A program made the position numbers and the translations under genes. Below the pieces are notes generated by a model. It had not been told where the DNA came from. It saw only the letters and a list, made by a program, of their open reading frames with translations, and did not search any database. DNA of 64,000 nt from sequence record KP869102. One strand, written 5' to 3'. Of this stretch, positions 1,453 to 41,413 are shown in pieces. Position 1 is the first letter of the stretch. Every line of letters starts with the position of its first letter. Source of the stretch: Escherichia coli O157 typing phage 4.

Positions 1453-2073
1453 TTAAAAACTGCGTTTGCGTCTTGGGTGGCGAGGAGGTTGATTATTTAG
1501 ACCACTGATAGGTGTAATCCCCTGAACATCGAACGGTCCGTTACTGTTTTCATTAAATTTAACCCGAATTCCTTCGTCTACACGAACACCACCAATGATA
1601 ATCATTCTGCTATAAGCATCTAGCTCAGAGTCTACATAATCTGGGTGTGCCAGCAGCCAATCAAGAAAATCTTTCCACTGAGCGTAGGAAGATCCACCAC
1701 GAATCTCTATGGTCTCATCACCTATTTTTTCCAGACGAGAAGTTATACTTGCATTACCACTGGAAACTTCCTGCATCATCAGCCACCGCACAAGCTGCAC
1801 AAGCACATTGTACTTAAGCAGGGGTAGCTTATCAGGGTCTGCCGGATAATTTAGTTTCAGCTTCTCCATGTCAAGGAATGTTTTAATTACCCCATCAGGG
1901 AGTGTTTCCTCATCAACATTTCCAAGCAATAACCTCATAATATCAATAAGAGGTTGGTCTGGATCAGGTTCTGGGGGCACAGGATCTTCTTTTGGTGGTT
2001 CTTCTGGGGTATCGACTACACCATCATGGTTAGGCGGTGACGGGATAATCTCTTCATCTTCATACCATGCCAT
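1453..2073 (-). CDS. hypothetical virion protein (Pro/Glu-rich N-terminus)
   Basis: ORF trimmed to internal ATG (MAWYEDEE) with GAGG RBS; track ORF 1453..2130. Confidence 0.4.
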   Translation of the reverse strand: MAWYEDEEIIPSPPNHDGVVDTPEEPPKEDPVPPEPDPDQPLIDIMRLLLGNVDEETLPDGVIKTFLDMEKLKLNYPADPDKLPLLKYNVLVQLVRWLMMQEVSSGNASITSRLEKIGDETIEIRGGSSYAQWKDFLDWLLAHPDYVDSELDAYSRMIIIGGVRVDEGIRVKFNENSNGPFDVQGITPISGLNNQPPRHPRRKRSF

Positions 2074-2132
2074 TTGAAAATACCTCGTAAAAATAAAGCC
2101 CCATTCCTGATTTGGAAGGGGCCTTAACAAAA

Positions 2133-2987
2133 TTATGCCAGTGCAGCCTCAAAATCTTTCATCATATTTTGGAAAGTTTTTGCCTTACTTAAGGTAACAC
2201 CGTGCTCTTTAGCGAAGGTTTGGAGTGCATCTTTCGAACCACTTTTGTCATCTTCGTTGTTAAGAGCTGAGGCTTGCTGTAGTATGGCATCAATATCATT
2301 ACCGGAAGATCTTGATTCTTGTGCCTGTTCAGGATCCTGCTTAGTTCCTTCCGTACCATCCGGTGCGGTAGGGCCTGGTGATTCCTCACTGCCACCACCA
2401 GGTTCAGTAGGACCTACAGGTGGCTCCGGCTCTGGTTCAGGTTCTGGGGCTACTGTAGAAGTCAGCCCAAGATTTACAACCTGAGAACGTTTCTTAGGCC
2501 ACTCAATGGTGAAAGTCTGGGTATCTTCTGCATAAGCAACATCGCATTGCTCATCGTTTATGGTCACTTTTTTGGGCATCCCTTCAGGGTCCCACAGATG
2601 ACCTTCTGCTACGGAAACCTTGAAAGCAGCATCTACCTCTTTAAACACCGAAGGAGTGAGTGTAATATTGACATCACCGCTTTGAAGTGTTAAAGTGCTT
2701 TCATCAAGATTTTCTGTGAAGAACAGAAGAATAACACCCATACGGATGGTTGAAATGCCTGTATCAATTGGCAGGCCTGTGTGTTTTGCAATCTTCTCGA
2801 AGAAGTCTACAATCGTTCTGCATGGATAGTGAACACTTCCAATAACGAACTCTGTTGGTGGAAGCAGGGCTGATAAACCAACATTGATTTCTGGATTGTA
2901 TTGTGCTAAAAATTGATAAAAACTTAACTGATTGTTGAAAACTCTTAATAGAGGATCATACTCGACTGGATATACGGCTCTCTTCAC
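2133..2987 (-). CDS. virion structural protein with PEPEPEPEP linker
   Basis: 284-aa ORF directly downstream of major capsid gene; two domains joined by Pro-Glu repeat. Confidence 0.5.
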   Translation of the reverse strand: MKRAVYPVEYDPLLRVFNNQLSFYQFLAQYNPEINVGLSALLPPTEFVIGSVHYPCRTIVDFFEKIAKHTGLPIDTGISTIRMGVILLFFTENLDESTLTLQSGDVNITLTPSVFKEVDAAFKVSVAEGHLWDPEGMPKKVTINDEQCDVAYAEDTQTFTIEWPKKRSQVVNLGLTSTVAPEPEPEPEPPVGPTEPGGGSEESPGPTAPDGTEGTKQDPEQAQESRSSGNDIDAILQQASALNNEDDKSGSKDALQTFAKEHGVTLSKAKTFQNMMKDFEAALA

Positions 2988-3068
2988 GGGACACTCCTGT
3001 TAAACCCTAATAAATAAAAAAGGGGAGGGGAGAACCCCCTCCCCATATGGGATGAATCACATTAGTGA

Positions 3069-4091
3069 TTATTCACTTTTCAGAGTTACTTTAACAACCA
3101 GCTCTGGGCGGGTGTTAACTGCCAGCATGGAAGTTTCAGATTCGATTTTCTGTTCTCTCAGGTAGGCAGAGTGTTTATACCACATATACAGCTCTTGAGC
3201 TGGGGTATTTGCATCTTCCAGAGTGTCAGCCGGAGCAAAGTGCAGCTGGAACATCTGATCGATACCCATAGGCATCAGACGAGCCTCACCGTCCGGAATG
3301 TTGCCAGAGATGTCTTCGATGAAGGTCATACCCTTGTGTTCAAACACACGGTAAATGCTCTGTTCACCACCTGCACCCAGACGACGACGCAGCGGTTCCT
3401 GAGAAGAGCTGTAGTAGGTGTAAGCCAGCTCTACCAGCGGGTGATGAACCAGTGCTGAGAAGAATTTCGGAGAGCACAGCGCGATGATGTTATAAGCACC
3501 AGCGTTGTCACCAGCCTGCAGAGCAATGTGCAGACGTGCATCTTCGATTACTTCCATCGGGTCCTGTGCTGCATTTTTAGGATCGATTTCGATAGATTTC
3601 TGGGAAACGCCCCACAGTTTGTAATAGTCATACTGACAGGTGGTGTCGCCAGGGGCATATGATTTACCCAGAACTGCAGCAAACAGCGCTTTTTCACGCA
3701 GAGTTTCGTGGGTCAGACGGATACGACGAACCACACGGGTAACTACGTCCTGAACAGTTTTCGGTGCATCAGGGGTGAAGTAGCGACGGAAGTTCTGAAC
3801 ATCCGCAGCGGTGATGCCTTTATCCAGCGGGAAGAACGGGATGTTCAGGTTTTTGATCTGAGCACGTTCGCTACCAACGTAGTTACGTTCACCACCACGG
3901 CGACGTGCAGCAATATCACCAACCACTTCATCTACACGTTCAATCTGTGCGATTGTTGAGGTGCCTAGATGAGTTTCAAACAGATCCATACCAGTGATCA
4001 GTCGGAATTGGCGCGGAACCAGTTCAAGAGTAGCACCTAAATCAACAATACCAAAATCATCTTTACGGGTGTTAGCCATTATTTTCTCCAA
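3069..4091 (-). CDS. major capsid protein
   Basis: 340-aa ORF at the lambda gpE position (portal-scaffold-decoration-capsid order); GC-richer codon usage than surroundings. Confidence 0.75.
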   Translation of the reverse strand: MEKIMANTRKDDFGIVDLGATLELVPRQFRLITGMDLFETHLGTSTIAQIERVDEVVGDIAARRRGGERNYVGSERAQIKNLNIPFFPLDKGITAADVQNFRRYFTPDAPKTVQDVVTRVVRRIRLTHETLREKALFAAVLGKSYAPGDTTCQYDYYKLWGVSQKSIEIDPKNAAQDPMEVIEDARLHIALQAGDNAGAYNIIALCSPKFFSALVHHPLVELAYTYYSSSQEPLRRRLGAGGEQSIYRVFEHKGMTFIEDISGNIPDGEARLMPMGIDQMFQLHFAPADTLEDANTPAQELYMWYKHSAYLREQKIESETSMLAVNTRPELVVKVTLKSE

Positions 4092-7647: not shown

Positions 7648-8736
7648 TTAGATAAAACGCTTGAACATAGAAGGTGATGAGATTGATGGAATCACACAAG
7701 GAAGTGCTACCTCCTCTTTCTCCAGGAAATTAATCGCAGAAGCTACACAGTCGGCCCAGTCGTCTTTCCTGTTAAATGTTGATCTTTCCCCGTTGAATTT
7801 TTCAAGTTCAGTCAGAAATGCTTCCAGAGTATCAGGATGGAAACTGGATTTTACAATCCTAACCATTCCTTGTTGGGCAAGATTGGCAAAAGGTGAGAAC
7901 CTTGTCAGTTTAGATTTGTTGGAAGGCATTGGGTCTTCTTCAACCCTAAACCCTTCGGCGAGCAAGGATCTGGAGGATGTTAAGAACTCACTCTTACCTG
8001 CCTGACCGGGGTCCACAGAGAATACGATTATACAATCATCACCATCAAACTGCGCCTGTTTCCTGATGATCACATCTCGTTCACCAGCCTTTTTACAGAA
8101 CTTGCCTTCCAGACCTGTGGAATACCTCCCGTCATCCACGTTCTCAGGACAATAATCACCGGACAGGTAATAAAAGCCGTCGCTATCTTTACTTACCTTA
8201 ACACTGGCGGTAAAGTCAGGAAATTTATTACCGGAAGTTCTCTCGGTTCCTGCCTTATCCCATGCCCTGCAAGATACTGATCCAAGGGGTACTCTATCGG
8301 CATCACGAAGGAAAGATCTTTGAAAATAGTTTGCACCCTCAGGCTTTGCAAACCAGTTGCCATGAAGAAGCTGGGCTTTTTCAAGCTCGGGCAGACCTTC
8401 AAGAAAAGCAAGGTATTCTGGGTTGTCTCTCAAGCAGACAGGATTATCGAAGATTGTTGCGCCTATAAACGAGAATGACAACGGTCTTGGCTTGATCTCT
8501 ACACCAAGTCCGTTAACCGTGGTGTATTTCTCTATCAACTCTTCCTTAGAGTCTCCCCAAATAAATTCACCGTCGCGTCGGATAAAATATCTTTTCTTAC
8601 CGCATTTCTCCGGATCTGGATACCCTTCATCGTCCAACCACCATCTAACCAGTTTGGCAAGCATGTGTTCTGAATCTGGGTTACAGCTGATAACCATTCT
8701 TGATGGATACTTTGACTGAGATCGCAGACGAGACAT
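7648..8736 (-). CDS. terL: terminase large subunit, C-terminal nuclease part (exon 2 or separately translated half)
   Basis: 362 aa with terminase-like VISCNP segment; continues the Walker A/B-containing ORF at 9650..10078. Confidence 0.75.
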   Translation of the reverse strand: MSRLRSQSKYPSRMVISCNPDSEHMLAKLVRWWLDDEGYPDPEKCGKKRYFIRRDGEFIWGDSKEELIEKYTTVNGLGVEIKPRPLSFSFIGATIFDNPVCLRDNPEYLAFLEGLPELEKAQLLHGNWFAKPEGANYFQRSFLRDADRVPLGSVSCRAWDKAGTERTSGNKFPDFTASVKVSKDSDGFYYLSGDYCPENVDDGRYSTGLEGKFCKKAGERDVIIRKQAQFDGDDCIIVFSVDPGQAGKSEFLTSSRSLLAEGFRVEEDPMPSNKSKLTRFSPFANLAQQGMVRIVKSSFHPDTLEAFLTELEKFNGERSTFNRKDDWADCVASAINFLEKEEVALPCVIPSISSPSMFKRFI

Positions 8737-9649
8737 CAGGTAGTCTATCTGTTCCCATTCGAATTGTGTCGTTTATGTTCAGGCAAGGTCGCTAGTCTTG
8801 CCCCGCCATTTTCAGGCAGCTGCATGTCTCCATGCAGACCAGACTATATCTTATGAATGTGTAAATACTCTGCCGCTCTAAGAATAGTTTCCTCATCTTC
8901 TTGGAAGAAACCTAAAGCTCTGTTGCATTTATCACAAAGCAACCCTCTTACAGCACCAGTTTTATGGTCATGATCAACACAAAAGAAATCTCTGTACCCT
9001 TGCGTCCTATACTCATCGAGAGATATTCTACAAATGGCACACTTATGATCTTGATCTGAGAGTAGACGATAGTATTCATCTTTTGTTATGTGAAATTTCT
9101 TCTCAATCTGATAAAACTTTTCACACATCTTACACCTGTTCGTAACCAGATATACTTTACCATAGTCACGTTTTGTGTAAAAACTATCAGCGAGCATACT
9201 TTCATGACAAGATTTGCATTCAAAAAGTTCACCTTTCTTCAGCAAGTCTTGAATAAATAATGCTGCGTCATCTCTCTTAACCATATTTTTGTTTTTACGA
9301 GATCCACCCTTCCTGTAGTACATATAGCATTCCTTGCATGTACCTGAGTATCCATCCTTGCTCTTAGATGATAAAAAGAAATCATCAATAGGTAGAACTC
9401 TTTGGCAATCCATACATTTTTTAGTATTACACATTCACCCTCCCGTTTCGAATCGCTTGATTCTACGTCTTTCGACTAGTCGTTGAACGTTCATCCTCTC
9501 GGATGCTTCGCTGCGGATTATCTAAACTAACACACTGTTACCATACCTTCGATCTCTCTTCGAAGCCTCTATCATGTTACCATGACAGGTTGGTGGTGTC
9601 AATAATAAAGATTTCCCCGCAATTAGGGAGGTTTTACGAGAGCTACAAA
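8737..9649 (-). mobile_element. intervening sequence in terL: candidate group I intron (or free-standing HEG insertion)
   Basis: ~910 bp between the two terL halves; contains endonuclease ORF flanked by 215-nt and ~107-nt non-coding segments. Confidence 0.6.
8844..9434 (-). CDS. homing endonuclease, endonuclease VII/HNH family
   Basis: Cys-rich N-terminus plus CVDHDHKTGAVRGLLCDKCN motif (Endo VII-type HNH). Confidence 0.75.
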   Translation of the reverse strand: MCNTKKCMDCQRVLPIDDFFLSSKSKDGYSGTCKECYMYYRKGGSRKNKNMVKRDDAALFIQDLLKKGELFECKSCHESMLADSFYTKRDYGKVYLVTNRCKMCEKFYQIEKKFHITKDEYYRLLSDQDHKCAICRISLDEYRTQGYRDFFCVDHDHKTGAVRGLLCDKCNRALGFFQEDEETILRAAEYLHIHKI

Positions 9650-10078
9650 TTAACCCTCATCGAAGCAAACCATGGTGTACTCAAGCCCTTGATGGTTAAG
9701 CTTATCTTGTACATACTCCATGTGGCAGTATTTTACAACAGCTCCCTTTTTGCTTCTATCCCACTTGCCAGTGTTCGGATCAAACCGTGGAAAAATGAAC
9801 TTATGATCCTTCTCTCTGAACTTTGGCTTAATGTTTTCAGGCAGATCGCTATAAATAGCTACTGCTTTAGGCCATAGTCCACCCTCACCTTCCAACTGTG
9901 GGGTTGTTCTTCGGAACATAACCACAGAGCTGTGGGGGTCATCAATAATTTTAAGTGGCATCAACTGCAAGAGAAACGACTTGCCAGACCCTGCGGCACC
10001 GCCGATTACCAAAATATCTGCATCGTTTTCGAGGATCATCTTCTGCTTTTCAGAACACGGTCCGTAAATCTTAGACAT
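9650..10078 (-). CDS. terL: terminase large subunit, N-terminal ATPase part (exon 1)
   Basis: Walker A GGAAGSGKS and Walker B VCFDE; ORF ends at a stop right after Walker B. Confidence 0.8.
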   Translation of the reverse strand: MSKIYGPCSEKQKMILENDADILVIGGAAGSGKSFLLQLMPLKIIDDPHSSVVMFRRTTPQLEGEGGLWPKAVAIYSDLPENIKPKFREKDHKFIFPRFDPNTGKWDRSKKGAVVKYCHMEYVQDKLNHQGLEYTMVCFDEG

Positions 10079-10365
10079 TAACCTCTCTCCTTTGGAAACA
10101 GTGTTCTAATATAGTCTTGCAAAATGATCAATTTAGCTCTATCATTGCTACAAGACAAATTATTATCCCTCATAATGCCAGAATTTACTGCATCTGGAGC
10201 ACCTTTCTTCAAAGGCATAGCTTTAGCAGGTGGTTTCATGGCACCTTCCGGGGGTTTAACAATCAACCTTCCTACATCTGGAGGGTCAATCTTGTATTCT
10301 CTCTCAACGCTGGTTGCACACCCACATAATAAAAAGCACACAATAAACAGTGCAGCAACTCTCAT
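10078..10365 (-). CDS. o-spanin (Rz1-like outer membrane lipoprotein)
   Basis: Signal peptide with lipobox LLCGC, Pro-rich body; 4-bp overlap with upstream i-spanin. Confidence 0.55.
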   Translation of the reverse strand: MRVAALFIVCFLLCGCATSVEREYKIDPPDVGRLIVKPPEGAMKPPAKAMPLKKGAPDAVNSGIMRDNNLSCSNDRAKLIILQDYIRTLFPKERG

Positions 10366-10760
10366 CGATCCTCCTGATTGATACTCTCATTATAAATATC
10401 TATAAGCTGATCAGGGAGTGTTGACTTCTTACCTTCAGGTGATTGGAGGTAGATAATCTGCTTTTCTCTACCTGCCCTCTCAGCTATATTTAATTTATCC
10501 TGCAGATCAGAAAGAGATTTTTCAAGGTTTTTAACCTCCTCTGCGTGGCCCATTTTAATCTTGTCGGCCTGCTTTTGTTGCTGATCAAGGATCCGTTCCC
10601 ACTTTAACTCTGTTGCTGACACACCCTCCTGGTAGGCATCATTAAGCTTGGAGTTAAACCAATACACGGCCCCAAGATAAGCTGTACCTATCGCAGCTGC
10701 AAAAACTAAACCTTTTATGATCCCTTTATACCTACTCAGCCATGTTAAAACTGAAATCAT
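10362..10760 (-). CDS. i-spanin (Rz-like)
   Basis: N-terminal TM helix followed by coiled-coil periplasmic domain; paired with lipoprotein gene. Confidence 0.55.
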   Translation of the reverse strand: MISVLTWLSRYKGIIKGLVFAAAIGTAYLGAVYWFNSKLNDAYQEGVSATELKWERILDQQQKQADKIKMGHAEEVKNLEKSLSDLQDKLNIAERAGREKQIIYLQSPEGKKSTLPDQLIDIYNESINQEDR

Positions 10761-10769
10761 TTTAAGGCT

Positions 10770-10806
10770 CCAGAAACGAAAAAACCCCGCAGCTATGCAG
10801 CTAACG
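10770..10806 (-). terminator. rho-independent terminator
   Basis: On minus strand: CCCCG stem / 15-nt loop / CGGGG followed by TTTTTT. Confidence 0.5.
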
Positions 10807-10865
10807 GGGCGGGTTAAAATTGAGTAACCTAAATAGATCGAAACTAACTAAAAGGAGACTAATAC

Positions 10866-11135
10866 TTATCGAGGCACTCGGTGGATGATTCTAACAGTAA
10901 CTGCATTTTCATTCATCAAGTATGCATCTACATCTCTGTAAATATAAAACTTCTGCTCACTATCAACAACACAAGCTACTGCCCCTTCAGAGTTGTCTTC
11001 AAAAAAGACCACCACTGCATCGCAGCTGAGTTCATGATATGACTCTCGAAGATTTACAGCCAGAGGATTGAAATCGTCACGAAAATCTACGGTATGGGTT
11101 GGATTTACACGCTCTACAATTTTAAGTGTATACAT
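10866..11135 (-). CDS. hypothetical protein
   Basis: ORF trimmed to ATG at 11135 (AAAGGA RBS) so it does not overlap tRNA-Pro. Confidence 0.4.
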   Translation of the reverse strand: MYTLKIVERVNPTHTVDFRDDFNPLAVNLRESYHELSCDAVVVFFEDNSEGAVACVVDSEQKFYIYRDVDAYLMNENAVTVRIIHRVPR

Positions 11136-11181
11136 TTTAAAGGTTCCTTTTGTTTGTATATGTTTAAAGTATAACTGAAAG

Positions 11182-11258
11182 TGGTCTCCACGGAGTGATT
11201 CGAACACTCGACCTCCTGATCCCAAATCAGGCGCTCTACCAAGCTGAGCTACGCGGAG
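11182..11258 (-). tRNA. tRNA-Pro (anticodon TGG)
   Basis: Cloverleaf folded by hand: C1-G72 acceptor, T-arm GAGTG-TTCGAAT-CACTC, anticodon loop TTTGGGA, CCA encoded. Confidence 0.75.
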
Positions 11259-11269
11259 TATTCATTATT

Positions 11270-11344
11270 TGGTGGCCCTGGGTGGAATTGAACCACCGTC
11301 TGGCGATTATGAGTCGCTTGCTTGAACCTTCCAGCTACAGGGCC
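11270..11344 (-). tRNA. tRNA-Met/Ile2 (anticodon CAT)
   Basis: Acceptor GGCCCTG/CAGGGCC, T-arm GGTGG-TTCAATT-CCACC, anticodon loop CTCATAA, CCA encoded. Confidence 0.7.
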
Positions 11345-11345
11345 A

Positions 11346-11421
11346 TGGTGCTGATGGCAGGACTTGAACCTGCAACCTATTGATTACAAATCAATTGCAC
11401 TACCAATTGTGCTACATCAGC
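11346..11421 (-). tRNA. tRNA-Thr (anticodon TGT)
   Basis: Perfect acceptor GCTGATG/CATCAGC, T-loop TTCAAGT, anticodon loop TTTGTAA, CCA encoded. Confidence 0.75.
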
Positions 11422-11426
11422 AAAAA

Positions 11427-11517
11427 GGTGCTAGGTGATGGAGTCGAACCACCCGAATCGCAATGATAACAGATTTACAGTCTGCCCCGCTACCCCTACG
11501 GAATTAACTCACCTAAA
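11427..11517 (-). tRNA. tRNA-Tyr-like (anticodon GTA), long variable arm; possibly aberrant
   Basis: Anticodon arm GCAGA-CTGTAAA-TCTGT, T-arm GGTGG-TTCGACT-CCATC, variable hairpin; acceptor stem pairs imperfectly. Confidence 0.45.
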
Positions 11518-21283: not shown

Positions 21284-21311
21284 GGGAGAACACGTGGAAG
21301 ACGGACGTTTA

Positions 21312-26212: not shown

Positions 26213-26220
26213 CAAGTATA

Positions 26221-26245
26221 GGGAGGCGCAAGCCTCCCTTTTCCT
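26221..26245 (+). terminator. rho-independent terminator
   Basis: GGAGGC-GCAA-GCCTCC hairpin followed by T-rich run. Confidence 0.7.
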
Positions 26246-27512: not shown

Positions 27513-27716
27513 TTGGAGACCGCAATGACACTAAAGTTAACAGTTCCAGACAGCTTTTCAGAAAACTTTATCCCAGAAATGATGGATAAGATGCGATCAT
27601 TGCTTGATCAGATTGAAGAGGCTGTTTGGGAAGACGATGCTGTAGTGGCTAACGAGCTGGTAGATAAGTGTAAAAGTATTATTGATGCAGTTGAAGAATA
27701 CCACGGAGGTTTTTGA
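27513..27716 (+). CDS. hypothetical acidic protein
   Basis: 67-aa ORF. Confidence 0.4.
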   Translation: METAMTLKLTVPDSFSENFIPEMMDKMRSLLDQIEEAVWEDDAVVANELVDKCKSIIDAVEEYHGGF

Positions 27717-28330
27717 TGGATATTATTGTTCTTAACGCCCCACCTAGTAGTGGTAAGGATCACATTGCAGATCTCTTGTTGGAAGCTATTCCTAACTCAC
27801 ACCATCGTGAGGTTAAGGAGATGCTCTTCAGCGTGGCAATTAAGGCAGCTGGTGTAACTCCTCAACTCTGGAATGCACTTTATGACCGCCACTACAAAGA
27901 AGAGCCTTGCCCTTTCTTAATGATAGACGGTAAGCATGTTTCTCCGCGAGAGTGGATGATCCATTGTAGTGAAAATCTGATTAAACCTATCTTTGGTGAA
28001 GATGCTTTCGGTAAGGCCGCAGTCACATCCTTGAAGAAAGATTTCCCTAAAGGTAAAGGGGTTGTTGTTTACTCCGATGGTGGATTCAAAGAGGAGCTGG
28101 CATGCCTTAGTGAGTACGCATACAGCACAGGTGGAGATCTGTTGTTGTTCCGTATTCACCGTGTTGGATATGACTGGGGAAATGATTCCAGAACCTATCT
28201 AAGTCTGGAAAAGAACGGAATAAAAGGGATTGAGTTCGATGTTGTAAATCCTGAAGGTGCACCTTGGGAATGTGCATCGGAGATTGTGTGCAAGTATATT
28301 GATGCTAAAGAGGCCCAAGAAGAATGTTAA
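27713..28330 (+). CDS. putative deoxynucleoside monophosphate kinase
   Basis: N-terminal P-loop NAPPSSGKD; 205 aa. Confidence 0.5.
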   Translation: MMDIIVLNAPPSSGKDHIADLLLEAIPNSHHREVKEMLFSVAIKAAGVTPQLWNALYDRHYKEEPCPFLMIDGKHVSPREWMIHCSENLIKPIFGEDAFGKAAVTSLKKDFPKGKGVVVYSDGGFKEELACLSEYAYSTGGDLLLFRIHRVGYDWGNDSRTYLSLEKNGIKGIEFDVVNPEGAPWECASEIVCKYIDAKEAQEEC

Positions 28331-28918
28331 TCGGAATTGATGTAGATTTGACACTGGTAGATTCAGGAACAGCATGGTGGGAGTGGTTGGAGCGTTTGTA
28401 TGGTCCAGCCAGTAAGACAGTCGTTAAACCTTCTAATGGGCTGATGTATTACGATCTGTCAAAGTATTGGCCTGATCGCCCCAAAGAAAACATCATAGGA
28501 CCTTTTGATTTCTGGAGTGATCCGTTCCTCTACGACTTTCTTAAGCCTGAAGAGGGGGGCTATTGAGGTTATGAAAGATTTGGTGGCTCGCGGTCACAAG
28601 CTCGCATTTATCTCGGTATGCAAGAAAGGTCACCTTGCATCTAAATCAAGGTTCTTAAAGCGTTGGACCAGTGATTTTATGGATCTGGATGATCACACCC
28701 AGGGTCACGGCTTCTACGCCACACATTTTAAAGGAAATGTGGCTGTAGATGTTATAATTGACGACAGGCATGAATACCTGAACCAATTCGCTTCACGACC
28801 TGAAGTTATTAAAATCCTAAAAGATACGCCTTATGAGCAATTTGAGGAGTTAAAGGTCAGTGTTGACTATACCGCTGATAGCTGGTATAAAATAGGAAAG
28901 TTTTTAGAAGGTATTTGA
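28324..28918 (+). pseudogene. HAD-family hydrolase interrupted by a frameshift at a G-homopolymer
   Basis: Motif I IDVDLTLVDS in frame A stops at 28566; continuation (GAIEVMKDL...VIIDD) in another frame; GGGGGG run at ~28552-28557. Confidence 0.55.
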
Positions 28919-28919
28919 A

Positions 28920-29120
28920 ATGGGCAGATGTTCTAAAGGTGGCGATCCTGTAGTCAGATACGGTGACTGGCTAGAGGTGTATGATCTGGGAGGTAAGCTA
29001 GTGTATGCCTCCAGGATCACCCAAGATATGTGCTCTGACATGTTTAACAGATACCTTGCATTTAAGGCCAACATAAACCCAGACGAAATTTCCAAAATTA
29101 AAACAAGGAGAGCTAAATAA
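28920..29120 (+). CDS. hypothetical protein
   Basis: 66-aa ORF. Confidence 0.4.
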   Translation: MGRCSKGGDPVVRYGDWLEVYDLGGKLVYASRITQDMCSDMFNRYLAFKANINPDEISKIKTRRAK

Positions 29121-30103
29121 TGCTAAAACTGTGCACTGCAAAGATTATTGCTGACAGCATTTCCGAGAAAGGTAAGCGTATCACCACTTTTGAACTAGAG
29201 TATCCTCGAATTATTCACTCAGAGCTTATGACGCACCGAGTGTTCAGCCGAAACGCCATGTCTTCCCGTGCAGTGCCTGTCGGCAAGATGCTGCAACAGA
29301 TTGTGGAGAATCCGGCAATGCCAGTTCGCTTCGGTGTAAATAAGCGAGGGATGGAAGATGGTGGGGAACACGATCAAAAGATCCGTGTAGAGTACACTGA
29401 CATGGAGTTAACTCCTGAAGAGTTTTGGAAAGAAGCTGCAAAAAACGCCGCTTGGCATGCAGAGAAGTTCGCCCTTGCTGGTTACCATAAGCAAGTATGT
29501 AACCGTTTAGTGGAGCCGTTTCAGCGCATGAAAACAGTTGTAACAAGCACAGAGTGGAATAATTTCTTCCATCTCCGTTGCTGGCACGATGCTGACCCTA
29601 CTATTCAGATGTTAGCGAATTGCATGTGGGAGGCTCTTATGAATAGCACTCCTGAAATCCTTAAACCTGGTCAATGGCACACACCATATGTAGAGCACGT
29701 TTATTTGGACGGCGAGTTTAACTATGCTGTACGTGACACAGAAGGAAAGCTTTGCATTCTCGATACTGGAGAAGCTCTGTCTATTAGTGCTAGTTGCTGT
29801 GCACAAGTATCTTATCGAAATATTGACAGCACGTTTGAAAAGGCAGACAGTGTGGCTAAAAAACTAATTGGTGGGGATCGTATTCATGCAAGCCCTTACG
29901 AGCACCAGGCAACACCTATGGATCATGATAACGCAATGGAACGTTTAAACTACTACCTGTCTTCATGTGAAATCACACAAGACATTAGTACTTGGCAGGA
30001 AGGTGTAACCCATCAAGACCGTGATGGTAAATTCTGGTCTGCCAACTTTTGTGGGTGGGTTCAGCACAGACAGCTGCTTAATAACCACTTCGTGAAAGGT
30101 TAA
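29120..30103 (+). CDS. thyX: flavin-dependent thymidylate synthase
   Basis: ThyX-like MTHRVFSRNAMSSR segment and TEWNNFFHLR segment; 327 aa. Confidence 0.7.
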   Translation: MLKLCTAKIIADSISEKGKRITTFELEYPRIIHSELMTHRVFSRNAMSSRAVPVGKMLQQIVENPAMPVRFGVNKRGMEDGGEHDQKIRVEYTDMELTPEEFWKEAAKNAAWHAEKFALAGYHKQVCNRLVEPFQRMKTVVTSTEWNNFFHLRCWHDADPTIQMLANCMWEALMNSTPEILKPGQWHTPYVEHVYLDGEFNYAVRDTEGKLCILDTGEALSISASCCAQVSYRNIDSTFEKADSVAKKLIGGDRIHASPYEHQATPMDHDNAMERLNYYLSSCEITQDISTWQEGVTHQDRDGKFWSANFCGWVQHRQLLNNHFVKG

Positions 30104-30132
30104 TCCTATCACAGCGATAGGTAACTTTTGTG

Positions 30133-30161
30133 TTGACTAATAGTATCAGATAATCTATAAT
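30133..30161 (+). promoter_or_regulatory. sigma70-like promoter
   Basis: TTGACT - 17 nt - TATAAT immediately upstream of gene at 30163. Confidence 0.6.
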
Positions 30162-34346: not shown

Positions 34347-34625
34347 ATGAGCTGTGAAAAATCTTTTTTCTTTATTATTTACGGTAAAGATAACTGCCCA
34401 CATTGTGTAAGAGCAAAAGAATTTGCAGTCAGTAAAGGTCTGCCTTTTGTATATAAGACACTTGGCGAGGGTTACACAAAAGAAGAGCTTATCGAGAAGT
34501 GCAGTCCAATCGTACCCAGAACGTTGCCGCAGATCTTCTTAGAAAGCAATCTTGAAAGTGTCCATATAGGCGGTGCCGACGATTTCATCTCTTTTGTTAA
34601 GAATGGTTTTGGAGAGAAAAAGTGA
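34347..34625 (+). CDS. glutaredoxin / NrdH-like redoxin
   Basis: CPHC active-site motif in 92-aa protein between RNR genes. Confidence 0.65.
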   Translation: MSCEKSFFFIIYGKDNCPHCVRAKEFAVSKGLPFVYKTLGEGYTKEELIEKCSPIVPRTLPQIFLESNLESVHIGGADDFISFVKNGFGEKK

Positions 34626-36745
34626 AAGTTGTAAAACGGGACGGTAGAGAAGAGGTCTATAACGGAATTAAGGTGATCAAGGCGGCAGAGTCCGCCTTAC
34701 TTGAGTCTGGACATACTGAAGAAGAAGCTTACCGGATCGCCTGCGCGGTTAATGAAGTTGTTGCTAACAATCTACCAACCGACCAGTGCACGATCTCTGT
34801 AAAAAATATCCATATCCTTGTTGAAGACGCTCTTATGGATATGGGTTTAAAATGTGCAGCCAGAGAATACATCCAGTATAGGCAGACAAGAGATAATAAC
34901 AGAGAGGCAGGTGGAAAACTGCTTGCAGATATTAGTGGCTTCTTGGATCGCACTTGTGATGAATTTACAAAAGAAAACGCAAATAAGCCTACCAATCATG
35001 TACACACTCATCGTGACCTGCTTGCAGGCATCCTTAGCAAACACCTTGCATCAACACAGATCCTGCCAGACCGTGTCTCAGAAGAGCACAATAAAGGCTT
35101 CATCCATGTGCATGATCTTGACTACTTGATCAGTCCGTTAACAAACTGTTGTTTGGTAAATTATCCAGATATGTTGGAAAACGGATTCAACATTGGCAAC
35201 GCCCATGTCAGTAAGCCGAAGTCAATAGGGGTTGCAACAACAATCCTTAGCCAAATCTCTAGTGCAGTAGCTAGTGCTCAATATGGAGGTCAGACTATGA
35301 GCCATATTGATCATTATCTGGCACAGTATGCTGAGGCGACCTATGAGAAGAATCTTAAATTTTGCCAGGAACACTGGTTGCCAGATGCTGAGACTGTTGC
35401 AATGCAAATGACAGATAAAGACGTATTTGACAGCATGCAGACTTTGCTCTATCAAATCAATACGTTAACCTCTGTCAACGGGCAAACTCCATTCATCACA
35501 TTAAGTTTAGGACTGGATACCTCGGTCTTTGGTAGAATGATTACCAAAAACTACTTGAAAGTCCACAAAATGGGTCTTGGTGAAGAACGTATCACACCTG
35601 TGTTCCCTAAAGTGCTGTTCTTCCTAGAAGAGGGTGTCAACATGAGCCCTGGAGATCCCAACTATGATTTGAAACGATTAGCTCTGGAATGCTCTGCAGA
35701 GCGGATTTATCCTGACTTTGTTTCTGTTCCACTAAATCGTAAAGTGACAGGCTCGACAGATGGCAAAGTAACGAGCATGGGTTGCCGGAGTTTTCTTAGC
35801 AAATACAATGACTTGGAAACAGGCGAGGAGAAATACCTTGGTAGATTTAACTTAGGCGTTGTTAGCCTTAACCTGCCAATGATTGCGGCAAAAGCTAAAA
35901 CGGAAGGTGTTGATTTCTTTGCAGTTCTTGACGAATACCTGGATCTTGCATACGAGGCTCACCTTGTAAGGGTTAACCGTCTAAAAGGAACAAAGGCAGG
36001 GCAGAACCCTATCATGTGGTGTGAAGGCGCTCTTGCTCGCCTGGATCCTGAAGAGAGTATTGATAAACTCTTCTATGACGGGTACGCTTCCATCAGTATT
36101 GGGTATATTGGTGTGTATGAAACCTGTCAGATTTTGGGCAGGGAGGGTGACAAGGCTTTAGCTCTTGGAATACTCCAGCACATGAGAGATGCTTGTGAGC
36201 GATACAAGAAGGAAAGTAGACTAGCGTTTAGCTTGTACGGCACCCCTTCTGAGAGTCTATGCTATAAAGCTGCAACCTGTCTGGATCGTGAATATCCTGA
36301 AGTGTTGAAGCATGAGCATGAATACCTCACCAACAGTTTCCATCAGCCAGTATGGATAAATAGCTCTCCTTTTGATAAGTGGGAATACGAGGAAGGTTTT
36401 GCTATGATCTCCTCTGGTGGCAACATCGGATACGTAGAGACACCAAATCTGAAAAACAACTTAGATGCTTTAGAGGCTCTTGTTGACTTCGGGTATAAAC
36501 ACATTATGTATTTTGGTATCAACCAGCCTGTGGATAAATGTCTTAAGTGTGGTTTCTCTGGTGAGTTCAGTGCAACAGCTAAGGGATTCGTATGCCCGGA
36601 GTGTGGAAACCATGAAGAGGGAACGATCAGTGTGATCAGACGTGTATCCGGGTACCTGTCTAGTCCAAACTCCCGTCCTTACAATAAAGGTAAGCAAGCG
36701 GAAGTTATAGAACGGGTTAAGCACTACGGAAGTTGTGGTTGCTGA
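34622..36745 (+). CDS. nrdD: anaerobic ribonucleoside-triphosphate reductase
   Basis: 707 aa, C-terminal glycyl-radical-like RRVSGYLSS and Cys cluster; followed by activase gene. Confidence 0.8.
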   Translation: MKVVKRDGREEVYNGIKVIKAAESALLESGHTEEEAYRIACAVNEVVANNLPTDQCTISVKNIHILVEDALMDMGLKCAAREYIQYRQTRDNNREAGGKLLADISGFLDRTCDEFTKENANKPTNHVHTHRDLLAGILSKHLASTQILPDRVSEEHNKGFIHVHDLDYLISPLTNCCLVNYPDMLENGFNIGNAHVSKPKSIGVATTILSQISSAVASAQYGGQTMSHIDHYLAQYAEATYEKNLKFCQEHWLPDAETVAMQMTDKDVFDSMQTLLYQINTLTSVNGQTPFITLSLGLDTSVFGRMITKNYLKVHKMGLGEERITPVFPKVLFFLEEGVNMSPGDPNYDLKRLALECSAERIYPDFVSVPLNRKVTGSTDGKVTSMGCRSFLSKYNDLETGEEKYLGRFNLGVVSLNLPMIAAKAKTEGVDFFAVLDEYLDLAYEAHLVRVNRLKGTKAGQNPIMWCEGALARLDPEESIDKLFYDGYASISIGYIGVYETCQILGREGDKALALGILQHMRDACERYKKESRLAFSLYGTPSESLCYKAATCLDREYPEVLKHEHEYLTNSFHQPVWINSSPFDKWEYEEGFAMISSGGNIGYVETPNLKNNLDALEALVDFGYKHIMYFGINQPVDKCLKCGFSGEFSATAKGFVCPECGNHEEGTISVIRRVSGYLSSPNSRPYNKGKQAEVIERVKHYGSCGC

Positions 36746-41140: not shown

Positions 41141-41413
41141 ATGTATTGTTGTTCTCAACAAGGGGGGTCATTTATGTACAAGTCATTTTCAATTTACTCA
41201 AGACAGGCGAAACACTACACAGAGATCCTGATTACTCAGAAAAAATCTGTAGAAGGTGAGTGGGAATATCACCATAAAATGTTGCGTCCAGATTGGGTTT
41301 TTGATAGACTTATTGCTATGATCCCTCTTGGAGAAGTATACCCTCTGACAGGTCATAGGGATGCTTGGGATTTAATTGATTACATAGATTCATTTAAGGA
41401 GCCCAGTGTATGA
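41141..41413 (+). CDS. hypothetical protein
   Basis: 90-aa ORF. Confidence 0.4.
   Translation: MYCCSQQGGSFMYKSFSIYSRQAKHYTEILITQKKSVEGEWEYHHKMLRPDWVFDRLIAMIPLGEVYPLTGHRDAWDLIDYIDSFKEPSV

Follow-up and report, generated by a model that had tools for sequence, protein, structure and literature searches.

An extra G in a homopolymer splits an NT5C-like HAD nucleotidase gene in one lineage of rV5-like phages

When the two halves of a phage gene are found in different reading frames that meet at a homopolymer, has the sequence been read wrongly, has the gene been lost, or does its expression depend on slippage? We address this question at positions 28324 to 28918 (plus strand) of a 64-kb stretch of phage DNA (64,000 nucleotides, hereinafter the window), which is 100% identical to the genome record of the rV5-like Vequintavirus JES2013 (NC_022323/KC690136; 28200 in the window is 78344 in the record). 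A previous inspection of the letters of this DNA, without database searches (hereinafter the sequence-only reading), had proposed that a frameshift in a poly-G tract breaks a HAD-family hydrolase gene here and had left the above three explanations standing side by side.

The disrupted gene is the equivalent of rV5 gp100, which is intact at 594 nt (197 aa). Its N-terminal part is an 80-aa open reading frame (ORF) at 28324 to 28566 of the plus strand, whose product begins with MLIGIDVDLTLVD and ends with KPEEGGY. This ORF encodes strand 1 with HAD motif I and the cap region; the frame is shifted after residue 78, and two frameshifted residues (G-Y) then precede a premature TGA stop, read directly from the sequence at 28564 to 28566. 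The DxDxT signature, DVDLT (D6-V-D8-L-T10; 28339 to 28353, plus strand), supplies the nucleophile Asp and the general acid/base Asp of motif I. The rest of the gene lies on the same strand in the +1 frame relative to the first ORF. Its longest ORF starts at a TTG at 28505 and runs to 28918 (KRGAIEVMKDL...VIIDDR...LEGI), and the segment from the ATG at 28571 to 28918 encodes 115 aa; this frame also reads KRGAIEVMKDLVARGHKLAFISV...VIIDDR...LEGI up to 28918. The two frames meet at a run of six G (28554 to 28559, plus strand) within aagaGGGGGGct, and deletion of one G yields a single ORF of 594 nt and 197 codons, a feature that is deterministic rather than statistical. The GenBank annotation of JES2013 (NC_022323) lists the two parts as separate hypothetical proteins, ORF98 (the 80-aa product) and ORF99 (the 115-aa product). 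Reading of the ORFs, the family and fold of the product, and alignment to relatives (see below) all bear out the proposed break in a HAD-family gene; the coordinates it gave, with the stop of the DxDxT frame at 28566, are exact and agree with ORF98 (28324 to 28566) and ORF99 (28571 to 28918), and the expected continuation, GAIEVMKDL...VIIDD, is indeed in another frame, with the switch at the six G. Runs of six G occur at just two places in the window, 28554 and 41162; the second (41162 to 41167) lies just 5' of an ATG (CAAGGGGGGTCATTTATG) and resembles a Shine-Dalgarno (SD) element.

The family of the product was examined by using the repaired protein, i.e., the translation of the gene with one G removed. 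It matches the Pfam NT5C model (PF06941) with 27.7 bits, above the gathering cutoff of 24.8, while the C-terminal fragment alone reaches a sub-cutoff 16.9 bits and the N-terminal fragment has no match; precomputed PF06941 matches are also found on several homologs (P0001 and P0004 to P0008). The phrog_420 profile covers residues 3 to 195 of the repaired protein (E = 1e-46), and its orthologs in that family carry differing annotations (HAD-like hydrolase, 5' nucleotidase, or putative 5'(3')-deoxyribonucleotidase). In NCBIfam, the only match, to the BT0820 HAD phosphatase model, was below threshold. A search of the PDB with the single sequence returned noise only. With a profile of seven homologs, 47 to 95% identical to the query, the top 10 matches were all mdN/cdN or, in one case, a design on that scaffold, the alignments being collinear and weak (E ~1.5e-3). 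An AlphaFold model of an intact, 95%-identical homolog (P0001; pLDDT 85.3, pTM 0.81) was compared with the PDB by Foldseek; the top 50 listed matches are HAD-fold proteins, 15 of them at E <= 1e-3, and the best match of the model is Staphylococcus epidermidis 3BWV (TM 0.58/0.68). The repaired protein is thereby predicted to be a phosphatase of the HAD superfamily, with a Rossmannoid core fold and a cap insertion. It resembles the NT5C proteins (human mdN, 1MH9, and cdN, 2I7D; S. epidermidis 3BWV) in Pfam score, HAD motifs I to IV, and fold, but is very distant from them in sequence (~16% identity, E ~1e-3), and the assignment of a substrate is putative here.

The placement of the conserved residues shows what the frameshift separates. 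Motif I is invariant among 17 homologs down to 47% identity and, in the model, lies at the end of strand 2-6. The other motifs all lie in the C-terminal remainder on the plus strand, namely, S97 for motif II (28613 to 28615), at the end of strand 92-97; K136 for motif III (28730 to 28732); and D146-D147 for motif IV (28760 to 28765), at the end of strand 143-146. All of these are invariant across the homologs aligned, and the repaired protein retains every invariant residue; the choice of K136 over K107 for motif III is a tentative one made by position. In the model, the break comes after strand 73-75 and before helix 79-88, in a loop at the boundary of cap and core. Motif I and the cap are thus on the 80-aa ORF and motifs II to IV in the +1 frame, so that no single polypeptide carries the full set, and we accordingly treat the locus as a disrupted rather than a functional HAD member.

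The gene is embedded in a nucleotide-metabolism operon in the order dNMP kinase, HAD gene, small ORF, thyX, and ribonucleotide reductase genes. The upstream gene (ORF97; 27716 to 28330, plus strand) is a deoxynucleoside monophosphate kinase (phrog_139, E = 2.6e-44) that overlaps the start of the HAD gene by 7 nt. Downstream, ORF100 (28920 to 29120, plus strand) and thyX (29120 to 30103, plus strand; PF02511, Thy1), which are close-packed or overlapping, belong to the same operon, and the ribonucleotide reductase genes come next. The operon is flanked at 26220 to 26239 and 30105 to 30161 by sites that resemble terminators and promoters, and scans for promoters and terminators near the break gave results at chance level. 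The adjacent dNMP kinase, ThyX, and ribonucleotide reductase genes suggest a role for the nucleotidase as a dNMP phosphatase.

Two other genes of this phage group are interrupted in some relatives. nrdD (34622 to 36745) is intact in the window (707 aa) and is split by an insertion in phiWec193 (a 534-nt hypothetical CDS) and FFH2 (annotated as an HNH endonuclease), and in one further contig (L019) nrdD and nrdG are separated by a DUF723/T5orf172 gene of 310 aa; the segment from nrdD to ~37300 is a hotspot of mobile endonucleases. The gene for the terminase large subunit (region 8453 to 11451) is annotated in rV5 as three joined pieces that enclose an HNH endonuclease, in LL12 as containing an intron, and in FFH2 and Murica as a single 1,548-nt CDS.

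Comparison with intact homologs in related phages, which the sequence-only reading had suggested as a check, recovered relatives in which the gene is a single ORF with five G or GGGAG at the tract. A single 594-nt CDS is annotated in rV5, phiWec193, 241Ecol014PP, LL12, FFH2, and Murica, and in direct alignment rV5, 241Ecol014PP, and phiWec193 are each exactly one G short of the window. Searches matched 119 to 123 phage records; among those listed (the 40 top-ranked, a spread of 60, and, with an 81-nt probe, the 60 top-ranked, together about 100 relatives), all are one base shorter than the query except vB_Eco_Alma. A variable-gap pattern scan of IMG/VR and a metagenome collection added three independent contigs, all with five G, and the gene is intact in two further contigs (AAQXAW010000011.1 and SRR24556928), in the latter of which a synonymous G-to-A change interrupts the tract (GGGAG). 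rV5 gp100 and its Vequintavirus orthologs thus share with the window the locus, the neighboring genes, and 95 to 100% protein identity once one G is removed, and those examined are intact at 197 aa, bar that of vB_Eco_Alma, whereas the gene of JES2013 and O157 typing phage 4 (TP4) is interrupted after codon 78. As judged from these comparisons, the frameshift is not conserved in the family.

Some of the records used in this comparison have peculiarities of their own. vB_Eco_Alma (OV101294), considered as a second case of the same frameshift, was rejected as such; it has five G, and its extra base lies 53 nt 5' of the run. In the segment from 1501 to 3281, both its HAD gene and its thyX are split, the extra base in the HAD gene being outside homopolymers, and the record looks like an error-prone assembly. 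In rV5 (NC_011041), a private 1-nt insertion at ~3153 splits gp058/gp059 (equivalent to ~2.4 to 3.3 kb of the window), a locus that is one CDS elsewhere (846 nt in FFH2 and Murica, 825 nt in LL12, and 828 nt in phiWec193). Such a split gene is like the present one in being a lineage-private single-base indel in a gene that is intact elsewhere, but the lesion of JES2013 and TP4 differs in being cross-validated by independent sequencing and in having its exact ancestral allele at hand (see below). Finally, 19 "Campylobacter phage" records within GenBank MG065635 to MG065690, 17 of them with Campylobacter jejuni as the host, are 97 to 98% identical to the E. coli Vequintavirus region; their host label looks doubtful and may reflect contamination or mislabeling.

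A tract that is longer by one in a single lineage could be an artefact, with five G in the true genome and the sixth an over-call in the deposited record. The change is a +1 homopolymer change, an error typical of 454 and Ion Torrent sequencing, the lesion is restricted to one lineage, and we found no primary paper that gives the platform of the 2013 JES2013 record. Against this, the six G recur in other data. The exact 80-aa ORF is present on five contigs, those of JES2013 and TP4 and the Logan assemblies SRR1391165, SRR8399272, and SRR1391163; the TP4 genome encodes the identical protein (AKE45448.1) and also a 137-aa product of the +1 frame that includes the out-of-frame leader (AKE45449.1). 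TP4 was sequenced on the Illumina MiSeq platform with 150-bp paired-end reads, assembled de novo with Velvet, and annotated with Prokka (Cowley et al. 2015; PMC4429339), and the typing phages had been propagated in laboratories from the late 1980s (PMC4429339). Over 20,243, 13,214, and 7,094 nt, respectively, the Logan contigs of SRR1391165, SRR8399272, and SRR1391163 show 100.000% identity to the window, and all three have six G; this support comes from assembled sequences, and all three read-set assemblies are continuous through the site. Two of the read sets, SRR1391165 and SRR1391163, probably belong to the typing-phage project. The sequence of rV5 gp100 (YP_002003602.1) is shared with AKE45666.1, a protein filed under the species Vequintavirus V5 that we take to be from typing phage 5 (TP5); if so, a phage from the same pooled run as TP4 yielded an intact gene with five G, like rV5. 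A different G count in high-quality reads had been named as the observation that would overturn the frameshift; in the assembled sequences, the Illumina-derived TP4 genome and the three read-set assemblies all keep six G.

The quality of the JES2013 record points in the same direction. Of the 112 ORFs that both phiWec193 and rV5 have in conserved and intact form, no other genuine gene is split by a frameshift in the window. JES2013 has three private indels in clean context in ~48 kb, compared with zero to five in the five relatives given the same treatment, and the idea that the record is riddled with homopolymer errors was rejected on these counts; among the 298 homopolymer runs of five or more bases in the window, just two have a length private to JES2013. 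The three private indels are all +1 changes in homopolymers (A6 at 3016, G3 at 21284, and G6 at 28554), and only that at 28554 is in a gene. The other two, at 3016 to 3021 (A5 to A6) and 21284 to 21286 (G2 to G3), are intergenic, the latter lying in the 9-nt spacer/ribosome-binding site before an HNH endonuclease gene. It is the one other private indel that an independent contig (L016) covers, and it is reproduced there. A random consensus error is very unlikely on these comparisons, and a systematic one is unlikely, as the same mistake would need to arise again in Illumina data over six bases; overall, we regard an artefact as quite improbable. Given the 100% identity to the typing phage 4 data, JES2013 may be of the same lineage as a phage of the Canadian O157 typing set rather than an independent isolate. 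All of the sources with six G are 100% identical and hence one clone, in which a single mutational event was sequenced repeatedly rather than a set of independent mutations.

The age of the lesion is suggested by contig AAQXAW010000011.1, whose gene matches that of the window base for base over the 594 nt that they share, the absence of the extra G being the one difference; in the 20 kb around it, identity to the window is just 97.1%. This gene is, by its sequence, the exact ancestral allele, and the repaired protein is likewise present intact elsewhere (P0022). Because the ancestral allele is otherwise identical and the invariant residues are all retained, the extra G is the sole lesion and a recent one. 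What the analysis shows is the sequence as it stands, a state that is unique among the relatives and recurs in independent data, together with the family and the fold; in our view the locus is, with good probability, the product of a recent insertion of one G (G5 to G6) that became fixed in the laboratory-propagated JES2013/TP4 lineage and inactivated the nucleotidase gene. Slipped-strand mispairing during replication would have turned five G into six; with six, the frame is lost after codon 78, and the shift creates the TGA at 28564 to 28566. Neither fragment could by itself form the active site, which makes loss of the enzyme the most likely outcome. Of the three explanations offered by the sequence-only reading, the genuine pseudogene is the one that we favor, the sequencing error is disfavored by the reproduced six G, and an evolved dependence on slippage is disfavored by the relatives being in frame.

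Several routes by which activity might survive the insertion were weighed; taken together, they are unlikely. Full-length enzyme could be made from the G6 allele by a +1 slip of the ribosome or by RNA polymerase dropping a G. In the ribosomal route, the P-site tRNA-Gly would move from GGG to the overlapping GGG, read GCU next, and restore PEEGAIEV, and any slip before the UGA at 28564 would serve as well. The site allows perfect +1 re-pairing on GGG-G, the stop is two codons farther on, and the tract GAGGGGGG is SD-like, which gives it a loose likeness to the +1 site of prfB (AGGGGG-UAU-CUU-UGA), where a G-rich SD-like tract likewise closely precedes an in-frame UGA and the productive frame is +1. 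Unlike the prfB site, however, that of JES2013 and TP4 is conserved in no homolog, and both its spacing and its slip codon are different: the distance from SD to stop does not match, and re-pairing from UAU to AUU would be poor. The resemblance is an imperfect one and an accident of mutation. Apart from the error-prone vB_Eco_Alma assembly, the other relatives that were examined keep one frame, with five G or an interrupted tract, and hence the site is not an evolved recoding element; with conservation failing in this way, it is not a programmed frameshift. In addition, GGC, the codon in the A site, is frequently used here (113 times), no significant stimulatory RNA structure lies downstream (z = -1.2), and there is no match in Rfam. 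Slippage of E. coli RNA polymerase is documented mainly on longer A/T runs, and a run of six G is an unlikely site for it. Expression through slippage is accordingly improbable. An enzyme split in two is still less probable. It would arise by re-initiation at the ATG at 28571, 5 nt past the stop at 28566 and preceded by the tract AGAGGGGGG, with noncovalent association of the fragments giving some activity. The predicted anti-SD pairing at this ATG is -11.6 kcal/mol at a spacing of 11 nt, stronger than at the neighboring genuine starts tested and among the strongest 6% of ATGs in the window, the break lies in a loop at the cap/core boundary, and both fragments are otherwise undamaged. Nevertheless, the enzyme would lack residues 79 to 82, with which helix 79-88 begins, strand 1 with its nucleophile would have to insert centrally into the core sheet, and the arrangement is seen in no relative; to our knowledge, a HAD phosphatase split naturally in this way is without precedent. 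A product of re-initiation would be a 115-aa fragment without the nucleophile, and its translation may also preserve the coupling to the downstream genes.

The tract might also be conceived as a hypermutable on/off switch, by which the nucleotidase would vary in phase within phage populations. Switching by poly-G tracts is known in some phages, such as those of Campylobacter, and the present lesion does lie in a homopolymeric G tract. However, the tract is short (five or six), it has five G in every relative checked (apart from the one GGGAG) and six in all five sequencings of the lineage, and the read-set assemblies are uninterrupted at the site, which would fit a predominance of the G6 allele in those data. 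Its constant length means that this is not a phase-variable tract, and we hold a contingency locus to be the least credible of the readings considered. There is a slight chance that the mutation has by accident made a working recoding or split-gene arrangement out of the SD-like GAGGGGGG, the GGG-G slip site, and the in-frame UGA. If this were true, the lineage would keep a reduced and possibly regulated activity, and a newborn recoding site would have been caught at its origin with its ancestral allele known.

The reading that we favor is the loss of the gene by a single inserted G. The locus represents, in disrupted form, the Vequintavirus gp100/phrog_420 family, within the NT5C branch of the HAD superfamily. 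What befell it is probably a recent gene inactivation of an ordinary sort, specific to one lineage, an instance of a well-known kind that involves no special mechanism of expression. The pair formed by ORF98 and ORF99 of JES2013, and its counterpart in TP4, are best annotated together as a single disrupted NT5C-like gene rather than as two hypothetical proteins. The case also illustrates that frameshifts in homopolymers should be checked against independent data before they are dismissed as errors. As the lineage is viable and has retained the lesion, the nucleotidase gene would seem to be dispensable for lytic growth on laboratory hosts. The lineage thus amounts to a natural knockout, which indicates that lytic growth on O157 hosts in the laboratory can probably proceed without this nucleotidase, conserved among the Vequintavirus phages, and which may be of use in studies of phage nucleotide metabolism and in the engineering of rV5-like therapeutic phages.
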